Part shown: one piece after another, positions 1,755-2,781 of the stretch
Layout of the letters: every line of letters starts with the position of its first letter
Numbering within the stretch: the stretch's first letter is position 1
From: an uncultured Gammaproteobacteria bacterium
Lineage (GTDB): Bacteria; Patescibacteriota; Patescibacteriia; UBA9934; GWF2-40-263
Length of the DNA: 44,926 nt
Direction of reading: 5' to 3'
Assembly: GCA_964471375.1 (NCBI GenBank)
Contig: CAYYFM010000073.1
Span: forward strand, 1 to 44,926
Made by a program: the position numbers and the translations under genes
Notes under the pieces: model-generated
Told to the model about the DNA's origin: nothing
What the model saw: only the letters and a program-made list of their open reading frames with translations
Databases searched by the model: none

Positions 1755-2781
1755 ATATCCCAAATAACCGTTTTGCATTCTCTGTCGTCACACGTGCGAC
1801 TTCTTGAACGGAAATTCCTTTCAATTCAGAAATTTTTTGTGCGACGAATTCCACCATCCACGGTTCGTTGCGTTCTCCGCGATGTGGAACAGGGGTTAAA
1901 TAAGGAGAGTCAGTTTCGATCATGATGTGTTCGAGAGGGAGGTCGCGGACGACCTGTTGGAGAGGAGACAGAACTCTATTCCCAGCGACTTTAGTCGCGT
2001 CCGTGTCAGCTTCTGACGGGACTAAAGTCCCTGGGAAATCACTTTTTCTTGGCGGAAAGGTGATCACGCCTGTAAACGATATTAGAAATCCAAGCTCGAC
2101 GTACGCGTTTGCCTGATCAAGCGTTCCTGTAAAACAGTGCACAACTCCACGGCGTTGCAACTTCCCTGCTTGAACGTATTCACGGATGATCGTGAGTTGA
2201 TCTGCATGAGCGTCACGACAATGAATCACCACAGGCAATCCAACTTCGCTTGCCAAATCAAAATGAGCACGGACGGTTTCCTTCTGCTTCGCGATCAGAT
2301 CATCACGGTCGAGATGCTCCGGCAACCGGTAGTAATCAAGTCCACACTCTCCAATCGCCACACACTTCGGATGCCGCGCCAAGCTTAGATAGTAGTCATG
2401 ATCAAATGTCTCGCAACGAGTCTTCACCCTATTCACAGCGACTTTAGTCGCGTCCGGATCAGACGCGACTAAAGTCGCTGTGAAATCCACCTCCTCCTCA
2501 TCCTTTGGCCCCTCTGGCTCTTTTGGCTCCTGTGGCTCTTTTTCCGTATCTATCTCATTCTCATCCACAAACTCCTGCTCGCACAAATGATTTGGATGCA
2601 ATCCAACGGTCGCCCACACTCCATCGTATCGCTCTGCAACCTTCAACCCATTCGCACTCGTGGTTGTCTGCGTCCCAACCGTAATCATAAACACACCCTT
2701 TTTTAGGGTGCGAAGAATCACATCATCCATGTCGTCGTGGTAAGCGTTGAAGTGAACGTGGCAATGCGTGTCGATAAGCAT
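1753..2781 (-). CDS. tatD: TatD-family metal-dependent hydrolase (DNase) carrying in-frame repeat insertions
   Basis: MLIDTHCHVHFNAY, VAIGECGLDYY, VVIHCRDAH, VVHCFTG and IMIETDSPYL are typical TatD motifs. Two palindromic elements and an acidic low-complexity stretch are read through in frame. Confidence 0.9.
   Translation of the reverse strand: MLIDTHCHVHFNAYHDDMDDVILRTLKKGVFMITVGTQTTTSANGLKVAERYDGVWATVGLHPNHLCEQEFVDENEIDTEKEPQEPKEPEGPKDEEEVDFTATLVASDPDATKVAVNRVKTRCETFDHDYYLSLARHPKCVAIGECGLDYYRLPEHLDRDDLIAKQKETVRAHFDLASEVGLPVVIHCRDAHADQLTIIREYVQAGKLQRRGVVHCFTGTLDQANAYVELGFLISFTGVITFPPRKSDFPGTLVPSEADTDATKVAGNRVLSPLQQVVRDLPLEHIMIETDSPYLTPVPHRGERNEPWMVEFVAQKISELKGISVQEVARVTTENAKRLFGI
1979..2037. 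repeat. double-hairpin palindromic element (ACTTTAGT/ACTAAAGT family), 59 bp, inside tatD
   Basis: TTCCCAG-CGACTTTAGTCG-cgtccgtgtcagcttctgacg-GGACTAAAGTCC-CTGGGAA. Translated in tatD as FPGTLVPSEADTDATKVAGN. Confidence 0.9.
2432..2484. repeat. double-hairpin palindromic element, 53 bp, inside tatD
   Basis: Perfect 23-bp inverted repeat TTCACAGCGACTTTAGTCGCGTC / GACGCGACTAAAGTCGCTGTGAA around a 7-nt spacer. Translated as FTATLVASDPDATKVAVN. Confidence 0.9.

Follow-up and report, generated by a model that had tools for sequence, protein, structure and literature searches.

In-frame colonization of enzymes by palindromic repeats has so far been tied mainly to Rickettsia. The Rickettsia palindromic elements (RPEs) RPE-1 to RPE-10 (Ogata et al. 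2000, 2002) measure roughly 100-150 bp and, in the account that PMC10969869 gives of them, enter many unrelated genes in frame at fold-compatible positions. [quoted passage not shown] REPINs, which are built from repetitive extragenic palindromic (REP) sequences, have an inverted doublet architecture with compensatory changes in the arms (PMC3116915) and are dispersed by single-copy REP-associated tyrosine transposases (RAYTs; PMC5581495). Here we describe the tatD gene of a 44,926-nt contig (CAYYFM010000073.1, analyzed over its whole length and called the window below), which very likely gained three pieces of repeat DNA that are read in frame as extra, predicted surface loops of an apparently working enzyme. 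Two of these pieces, element 1 and element 2, are inverted doublets of a 23-nt hairpin unit (the half-unit) and belong to a repeat family, the tatD family, that has further copies in the window; the third is a tract of 9-nt words next to element 2.

The tatD family resembles the RPEs in that small palindromic repeats lie both between genes and inside unrelated housekeeping genes of a small, reduced genome, always in frame as an extra peptide and at fold-compatible positions. It differs from them in its size of 53-59 nt, in being built of two 23-nt hairpin units in inverted orientation, in its host, which belongs to the Patescibacteria, and in occupying the same loop of one gene in several lineages. 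RPE-type in-frame fusions were found in tatD (two), in rlmN, in a methyltransferase-like open reading frame (ORF) and at the C-terminus of rsmI, and, among loci fetched from other genomes, in an ORF of L006, in metG of L005 and in an ORF of L008. The insertion sites in TatD are fold-compatible in the predicted structure, where the inserts lie in beta-alpha loops and are the sole low-confidence parts of the model. The preliminary description of this DNA had likened its behavior to that of the RPEs; this stands for in-frame, fold-compatible insertion, but the resemblance is functional only, because these are 53-59-nt doublets of Patescibacteria, and their size, architecture and host do not support placing them in the RPE family. 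In-frame palindromes are known from Rickettsia; the repeat family and the host group differ here. That the same is done in an Uhrbacteria genome by an unrelated, much smaller, REPIN-like family suggests that such colonization comes up repeatedly in small, reduced genomes.

Like REPINs, the family is built from a short hairpin unit whose 5' tail is conserved, paired into inverted doublets across a short spacer; its hairpin is kept by compensatory changes, target duplications are lacking, copies are enriched in spacers (7-9 of the 18 units in the ~10% of the window that is non-coding), and the same genome has a single-copy RAYT-like gene with flanking palindromes. However, REPs are extragenic by definition, whereas about half of the tatD-family units are translated; the RAYT-like gene is flanked by another palindrome, CCATTCCGGCTCTAAGAGCCGGAATGG; and the tail is the CTAG-containing TTCCTAG, not GTAG. 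No RAYT flanked by the tatD-family repeat was found in the window or at L001-L016. With MITEs the family shares its non-autonomous nature, terminal inverted repeats (23-nt arms, perfect in element 2), a location within and between genes, and the addition of peptides. It differs in that we found neither a target-site duplication nor, in the 45-kb contig and the loci from strict 23-mer scans, a full-length insertion sequence related to it, and in being much shorter than most MITEs, and it fails to qualify as a classical MITE on the point of target-site duplications. In full-text literature searches, no paper joined palindromic repeats and Uhrbacteria, and Patescibacteria together with RAYT gave nothing relevant.

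The tatD gene and its extra segments

In the protein search, the window TatD fell among Candidatus Uhrbacteria (Patescibacteria, candidate phyla radiation), and the genome is assigned to this lineage on the source names of the related proteins. TatD matched Pfam PF01026 over the whole profile (positions 1-253 of 253; E = 2.8e-74; 250.1 bits against a cutoff of 27) and TIGR00010 with 235 bits (cutoff 206), and a sequence search of the PDB gave E. coli YcfH (1yix), S. aureus 2gzx/6l25 and T. maritima 1j6o as solved relatives. The alignment with YcfH (1yix) fell into three blocks (query residues 2-65 with chain residues 3-70, 126-243 with 75-183, and 273-342 with 187-256). The extra segments of TatD are therefore about aa 66-125 and 244-272, where ~60 and ~29 residues face just 4 and 3 residues of the 265-aa YcfH. 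All of the metal-binding residues indicated by this alignment are kept (H6, H8, E145, H187, H215 and D291), and the TatD signature, consisting of HxH, the Glu of GExGLD, two His and the Asp of ETD, is present and (nearly) invariant among orthologs. The 88 invariant columns of a 24-sequence ortholog alignment are likewise all intact. The ratio of nonsynonymous to synonymous substitution rates (dN/dS) between the window and the related locus L001 was 0.073, which is an average over both lineages, and four neighboring genes gave 0.02-0.15. In an AlphaFold2 model, run with 120 orthologs, the overall predicted local distance difference test score (pLDDT) was 88.7 and that of the barrel core was above 95; confidence was low just at residues 71-120 and 245-270. 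Foldseek matched the model to 1j6o, 6l25, 1yix and 2gzx with target-normalized TM-scores of 0.86-0.91, so that the predicted fold is a TIM barrel. Judged from its sequence, tatD is an intact, selectively constrained gene for a metal-dependent hydrolase of the TatD/YcfH type.

Evidence that the extra segments were inserted comes from the closest tatD ortholog, P0002 (295 aa, 88-90% identity over aligned residues). Its locus, L001, is fully syntenic with the window (DUF3179-rsmI-metG-cvpA-tatD), and the two tatD genes share 82% nucleotide identity over aligned codons, with a synonymous divergence (dS) of ~1. The DNA alignment showed that L001 tatD has neither element 2, nor the 9-mer tract, nor element 1; the doublets add 54 and 60 nt to the window gene, which are whole codons. 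L001 holds 0 half-unit cores in 12.9 kb. Outside tatD, the DUF3179 stop and the rsmI start of L001 form TAAT directly followed by ATG, an empty site for the insert at the same junction of the window (Table 1), and rsmI and metG overlap in L001 with no element, whereas in the window two and a half elements lie between them. We conclude from these filled and empty sites that the repeat family has been active in the window lineage. Target-site duplications were not visible in any of five filled/empty comparisons, in which divergence of the flanks limits resolution.

Element 1, which consists of TTCCCAGCGACTTTAGTCGCGTC, the spacer and GACGGGACTAAAGTCCCTGGGAA, adds the in-frame peptide FPGTLVPSEADTDATKVAGN (F249-N268). 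The succession of strands and helices in the AlphaFold2 model places it in the beta7-alpha7 loop, with a pLDDT of ~60. As single-stranded DNA it folds with -21 kcal/mol (z = -7.5), and as RNA it would form a stem of roughly 21 bp with -34 kcal/mol. The peptide of element 2, FTATLVASDPDATKVAVN (F100-N117), is placed by the same model at the tip of a beta-hairpin (E69-72/E118-121) in the beta3-alpha3 loop, pLDDT being below 50 at residues 95-108; the corresponding folding values are -30.5 kcal/mol (z = -12.7) as single-stranded DNA and -45.3 kcal/mol as RNA, with a 25-bp stem. The predicted junction peptides of the inserts include SDFPGTLVPSEADTDATK and DEEEVDFTATLVASDPDATK. Both doublets are alike (89% identity over 37 nt, with similar flanking bases), and they have in common GCGAC stems and a loss of CTAG by mirrored changes on both arms (CCAG/CTGG and ACAG/CTGT) that keep the pairing, features that the other copies do not have. 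To judge by this resemblance, it is probable that one tatD copy gave rise to the other or that a single sub-family master copy was the source of both.

The word tract lies two codons from element 2, also in the beta3-alpha3 loop, and its units are, in order, GAGCCACAG, GAGCCAAAA, GAGCCAGAG and GGGCCAAAG. Tandem Repeats Finder gave a period of 9 and 4.7 copies at 2501-2542, and tract and flanks together encode the acidic stretch EKEPQEPKEPEGPKDEEE (aa 80-97). The pattern GAGCCA-N3-GRGCCA-N3-GAGCCA had 6 matches in the window against 0 expected, confined to the tatD tract and to both arms of a hairpin in the rplJ-rplL spacer (-28.8 kcal/mol, z = -6.2; Table 1); the tract is 80% identical to the left arm of this hairpin over 44 nt. 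Short tandem words (for example GTAGCGT x n against its complement) also make up the arms of several other intergenic hairpins, at 7289-7388, 30619-30715, 35733-35856 and 42840-42959, and tandem-word hairpins of this kind may be a general feature of spacers in this genome.

The preliminary description had claimed that TatD motifs are intact on both sides of two palindromic elements through which the ORF reads in frame, that a tract of TGGCTC words beside element 2 shares its words with an intergenic hairpin, and that about 60 residues of selfish or low-complexity DNA thereby appear to be tolerated in an intact TatD. The factual claims held: the full-length profile matches, the reading frame and the word pattern agree with them, the count is close (~54 residues against the closest ortholog and 52 against the commonest ortholog length), and tolerated in-frame insertion is supported by the empty sites of L001, the dispersed family, the dN/dS value and the modeled loops. 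The expectation that the extra segments map to loops was likewise borne out in the predicted structure, in which they are low-confidence loops outside the confident TIM barrel.

In each orientation the element has one single stop-free frame (frame 0), which reads FLGTLVPSGLDATKVARN or FLATLVASSPDGTKVPRN, a short, hydrophilic peptide of the form F-x-x-T-L-V-x-S...D-x-T-K-V-x-x-N. The full in-frame copies are all in this frame (two in tatD and those in rlmN, the methyltransferase-like ORF and L006). Short hairpin-forming inserts within coding sequence are also represented by the yeast mitochondrial 'byp' elements and the 50-nt coding gap of phage T4 gene 60, which are skipped by the ribosome and usually carry stop codons. 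The tatD inserts differ from these in that they add whole codons, are stop-free and have no matching take-off and landing codons. Ordinary translation of the open frame therefore suffices, and we rejected ribosomal bypassing or splicing of the inserts, whose lengths are multiples of three, as unneeded.

The repeat family and its possible mobility

A 14-nt core, GCGACTTTAGTCGC, occurred 21 times in the window with at most 2 mismatches, against 0.33 expected, and none of 100 shuffles reached 21; a stricter search gave 18 perfect half-units in 45 kb. The half-unit is made of a TTCCTAG-like tail, a 5-bp stem, a TTTA loop, the complementary stem and GTC. Most half-units are arranged as inverted pairs with 7-13-nt spacing, which gives doublets of 53-59 nt. 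Five doublets are head to head (starting at 1979, 2432, 4869, 5648 and 44353), and tail-to-tail pairs start at 8494 and 44724. In a composite variant, type B (three copies), a second hairpin lies within the loop of a GCCAC-stem unit.

For the analysis of covariation, the window and 14 fetched loci (15 sources) supplied 34 distinct half-units, and the variable stem positions were left unconstrained. Stem positions were paired in 98.8% of cases, and both-sided changes were seen in 4 of the 5 stem base pairs (stems GGGAC, GCCAC, GCGAC, GCGAT and CTGAC). None of 500 shuffles reached the observed values and no slid register came close. Nearly all of the covariation is in pairs 8:19 and 9:18, both of which were free during sequence collection. 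The paired stems and compensatory changes indicate, therefore, that a small hairpin is conserved and not sequence alone. By location, 9 half-units are coding, 7 are intergenic and 2 straddle gene ends, in a window of which about 90% is coding, a placement that would be expected if selection removed most of the copies that had entered coding sequence.

Genome and metagenome collections, in which the window's own genome is not included, yielded 5 and 6 loci in strict 23-mer scans, and no transposase lay beside the element at these loci. An Rfam scan of the window gave tRNA-Pro alone. A protein database search with a 54-aa synthetic concatenation of element peptides gave one candidate, and a search of 1.84 billion representatives with a 32-aa window segment returned the segment itself, P0241 and an unrelated repeat protein, the motif being too short for such searches. 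P0241 (54 aa, NCBI, from a 7-kb contig) is an annotated 'protein' made wholly of tandem element peptides, MFAATLVASGLDGTKVPMNVFLATLVAS..., which indicates that arrays of the repeat are called as genes. For annotation this means that 18-20-residue loops of the form F..TLV.S..D.TKV..N, C-terminal tails and small 'proteins' such as P0241 are repeat DNA and not protein innovations.

The hairpin loops of elements were also seen to host further small hairpins (4922-4975, 11771-11817 and 44780-44833 in the window, 10274-10303 in L004); in the type-B element, CCCACC...GGTGGG lies inside the GCCAC stem. Tandem repeats stand directly at some element ends, namely (TAGGAA)9 at 5695-5749 and 3.7 copies of CTAGGAATCTTGTAG at 18879-18933.

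We propose the following course of events for tatD. Since the split from the nearest sampled relative, a 53-nt doublet and a 36-nt tract of 9-mers would have entered the beta3-alpha3 loop, and a 59-nt doublet the beta7-alpha7 loop. The doublets would represent a small family of non-autonomous mobile elements with a REPIN-like inverted unit. Coding copies may survive because they add whole codons and have one stop-free frame per orientation, selection would remove the copies outside permissive loops or gene ends, and the outcome would be extra, probably flexible, surface loops translated within the enzyme. Because the hairpins are sub-terminal, target-site duplications are absent and the architecture is that of an inverted doublet, the doublets could be mobilized in trans by a HUH/Y1 enzyme (RAYT or IS200-like) that acts on single strands and recognizes hairpins; we offer this step tentatively, as a best guess, because no such enzyme was found next to the tatD family in the window or the fetched loci.

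Recurrence at one loop and alternative explanations

Among 120 orthologs, the segment at site 1, the beta3-alpha3 loop, had a commonest length of 19 residues (47/120), typically ELPPEESATPKIK, which is a widespread ancestral motif without the element. The window segment at this site (51 residues) was the longest of the 120, and that at site 2 was the second longest. An element at the same loop was confirmed at the DNA level in P0001 (the window), P0005/L003, P0018/L004 and P0020/L005, the element of P0018/L004 having a 30-nt nested double hairpin in the loop of its right half-unit; in P0011, P0014 and P0024 the half-unit peptide DGTKVPGN is retained. Orthologs with homologous segments at the same loop, which the preliminary description had named as a sign against insertion, thus do exist (three full and three half-unit), but in a neighbor-joining tree of the gap-free core, which carries no bootstrap values, all four full carriers have an element-free ortholog as their sister (P0002, P0004, P0016 and P0026). 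Identity was 82-93% within the sister pairs vs 71-83% between carriers. As far as these sequences go, the distribution of carriers indicates repeated acquisitions and not an inherited loop. Repeated filling of one tatD loop is a natural experiment on target preference versus selection, and the paired filled and empty alleles are material on how the catalytic face of a TIM barrel tolerates insertions.

The carriers need not represent independent transpositions. A single acquisition at site 1 might have been followed by spread among Uhrbacteria tatD genes, segments being exchanged by homologous recombination or gene conversion via the highly conserved flanks CEQEF.D..EL and KTRCE.FD. We consider this doubtful, although several details suit it: 3 of 4 lineages share the codon of the right junction (the element Asn, followed by x-[I/V]-K-T-R-C-E), with one extra residue in L005; the left junction E-L-E-F is common to L003 and L004; the native PPEESATPK of L003 was replaced, not interrupted; the DEQEL upstream of it in L003 is unlike the DDDEL of its sister and matches other clades; and there is no target-site duplication. 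However, the stem type, spacer and loop of the element copies change from lineage to lineage, the left junction of the window copy is another one, and the family enters new sites elsewhere (tatD site 2, rlmN, the methyltransferase-like ORF and intergenic junctions). Sliding divergence profiles around site 1 gave no usable signal of recombination tracts, because the loop does not align.

At the other extreme, Patescibacteria might possess protein-coding, REPIN-like palindromes of their own, moved by some hairpin-recognizing enzyme and endowed with a target preference. They would enter catalytic-face loops of housekeeping enzymes again and again, with at least four acquisitions at one tatD codon, and the element itself would act as a landing pad for mini-inserts such as the hairpins nested in its loops and the tandem-word tracts at its side. 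This is speculative and, in our view, unlikely; if it is true, such palindromes would be one source of many lineage-specific protein insertions in Patescibacteria.

Insertion into a working enzyme has also to be weighed against recent inactivation, in which inserts on the catalytic face and strong mRNA hairpins would have disabled tatD, and the frame would be open just for lack of time. The perfect palindrome of element 2 does suggest youth, the window segments are extreme in length among the orthologs at both sites, and the RNA stems reach -45 and -34 kcal/mol. Nevertheless, the catalytic residues and the 88 invariant columns are intact, dN/dS (again averaged over both lineages) is like that of the neighbors, all three added pieces preserve the frame and are stop-free, which is unlikely without selection, rlmN and rsmI carry the same elements in frame, and in-frame copies persist in several other genomes. 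Inactivation is accordingly very improbable.

Equally improbable, in our estimate, is that the palindromes in the gene have been recruited, either as mRNA hairpins that tune translation or decay of tatD, or as peptide loops that mediate interactions. The in-gene hairpins are stronger as single-stranded DNA than the intergenic copies (-21 and -30.5 vs -9 to -11 kcal/mol), the mirrored departures from the consensus in both arms keep pairing, and the same loop has been filled in 4 lineages with half-units kept in 3 more orthologs. On the other hand, the closest relatives manage without elements, the sequence and length of the elements and their partner inserts vary freely, and arms that match perfectly would be expected just as much if a symmetric master element had been copied recently.

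That TatD has its extra segments by descent, as loops specific to the Uhrbacteria lineage and not as inserted repeat DNA, is scarcely credible: the beta3-alpha3 loop of this group is indeed already longer than that of E. coli YcfH, commonly at 19 residues, and some orthologs have the same peptide in the same place, but the closest ortholog has no such segments, the DNA belongs to a dispersed family that is intergenic too, and the carriers are scattered on the tree beside element-free sisters, with the ancestral ELPPEESATPKIK free of the element.

Several points weigh against our preferred explanation, that mobile doublets and a word tract were inserted into a tatD gene that continues to work. 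The beta-alpha loops of a TIM barrel lie on its catalytic face, and both insert loops are of this type, so the function of TatD could be altered; that it works with the inserts is what we infer. The RNA stems of the elements could reduce tatD expression from within the coding region. The insertions are not clean, since native codons were lost and no target-site duplication is visible, and in tatD of L003 vs L020 (dS 0.44) 27 native nt were replaced by 60 nt. The second tatD copy may have arisen by local duplication or gene conversion and not by a separate transposition. Finally, tblastn found no RAYT-like ORF near tatD-family elements in the fetched loci L001-L016.

Other small inserts were observed in tatD orthologs. 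At the beta7-alpha7 loop, P0007, P0014, P0042, P0043, P0045, P0086 and P0090 have short inserts (such as SPSKGEGQGEV, LLSKEGLGVV and PPFQGGGGGG), which at the protein level look like translations of other GC-rich palindromic repeats. A 24-nt insert, GGTTCGCCTACGCTCACCACAAGT (GSPTLTTS), stands between the Asp and Ala of RDAH in L001 (6466-6489) and L003 (983-1006) and is absent from the window; it occurs in three orthologs on separate tree branches (P0002, P0005 and P0035) and could likewise be a mini-insertion with repeated occurrence at a single site. As a dispersed repeat we rejected the L001 insert, because no further copies were present in the fetched loci.

Other copies and the RAYT-like gene

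The copies of the tatD family and associated features are collected in Table 1. The last 19 residues of RsmI are encoded by the type-B element and part of doublet 4869-4921. RlmN matched TIGR00048 (E = 3.1e-76, 256.6 bits) under the 290-bit equivalog cutoff, and in the alignment with PDB 6fz6 its residues 135-169 face chain residues 156-167, which leaves ~23 extra residues. The ORF at 44046..44585 had weak matches to class I S-adenosylmethionine-dependent methyltransferases, under the Pfam and NCBIfam cutoffs. The in-frame copies of other genomes lie in an L006 ORF with a Walker-A-like motif (GPEGVGK), in the tail of L005 metG and in a 579-aa ORF of L008.

Table 1. Position of tatD, of tatD-family copies and of associated repeats in the window
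Feature	Position	Strand	Description
tatD	1753..2781	-	342 aa, complete open frame
Element 1	1979-2037		59-nt inverted doublet; half-units with GCGAC and GGGAC stems; 13-nt spacer
Element 2	2432-2484		53-nt perfect palindrome; 23-nt arms; both stems GCGAC; 7-nt spacer
Word tract	2503-2538	-	4 x 9 nt (GAGCCANAG); GAGCCA words; encodes EPQEPKEPEGPK
rsmI-metG spacer cluster	4846..4975		half-unit, doublet 4869-4921, type-B element 4922-4975
DUF3179-rsmI junction	5648..5749		doublet 5648-5700, then (TAGGAA)9; rsmI ATG within the element end
Two half-units, tail to tail	8494..8551		stems GCCAC and GCGAT; spacer between glutaredoxin-like gene and small upstream gene; overlap both gene ends
Composite element in rlmN	11771..11853	+	type-B left part and GGGAC half-unit; in frame, FLATFLPTKALASVGVQSETDGTKVPRN
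Palindrome site	13446-13484		listed with the CCATTCCGGCTCTAAGAGCCGGAATGG palindromes that flank the RAYT-like gene
Half-unit, then 3.7 x 15-nt repeat	18863..18933		repeat CTAGGAATCTTGTAG; 5' end of cohesin-domain ORF, possibly coding
Hairpin of GAGCCA 9-nt words	35100-35196		rplJ-rplL spacer; flanking genes Ribosomal_L10 and L12
CCATTCCGGCTCTAAGAGCCGGAATGG palindromes	36047-36075, 36123-36151, 36896-36924, 36972-37000		two copies on each side of the RAYT-like gene
RAYT-like Y1 (IS200-type) gene	36178..36867	-	between murF and rplJ
Doublet with intact CTAG ends	44353..44405	-	in frame as FLATLVASGSDGTKVPRN; methyltransferase-like ORF 44046..44585
Cluster adjoining tRNA-Pro	44724..44833		two half-units, tail to tail, and type-B element 44780-44833

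The RAYT-like protein of the window matched Pfam Y1_Tnp weakly (E = 6.4e-4, under the cutoff); it had 1311 homologs, and ~100 of the 120 best listed carry PF01797. Its gene adjoins murF in the window, L017 and L018, lying between murF and rplJ in L017 as well. The orthologs in L017, L018 and L019 each have flanking palindromes of their own that covary, so that the classic REP/RAYT layout is seen here in Patescibacteria. As mobilizer of the tatD family the window gene, the only one of Y1/RAYT type there, was rejected, since it and its orthologs are flanked by palindromes different from those of this family; it does show that systems of this sort exist in the lineage.

In murF (minus strand), a near-perfect half-unit, TTCTTAGGGACTTTAGTCCCGTA, at 37410-37432 encodes LRDFSPV, and L017 has TTCTCAGGGACTTTAGTCCCGTC at 887-909. 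We rejected it as an insertion because the L017 ortholog has the same nucleotides in the same codons with no change in length; these nucleotides are conserved between the window and L017 though dS is ~1 in other genes of both genomes. The murF half-unit lies ~550 nt from the syntenic, vertically inherited RAYT-like gene; on the speculative reading that Patescibacteria have coding palindromes of their own, this proximity would hint that the element family is linked to a domesticated RAYT-like transposase. A 2592-aa ORF at 21255-29033 (minus strand) contains 5-6 internal repeats of at least roughly 300 nt that are 63-85% identical.

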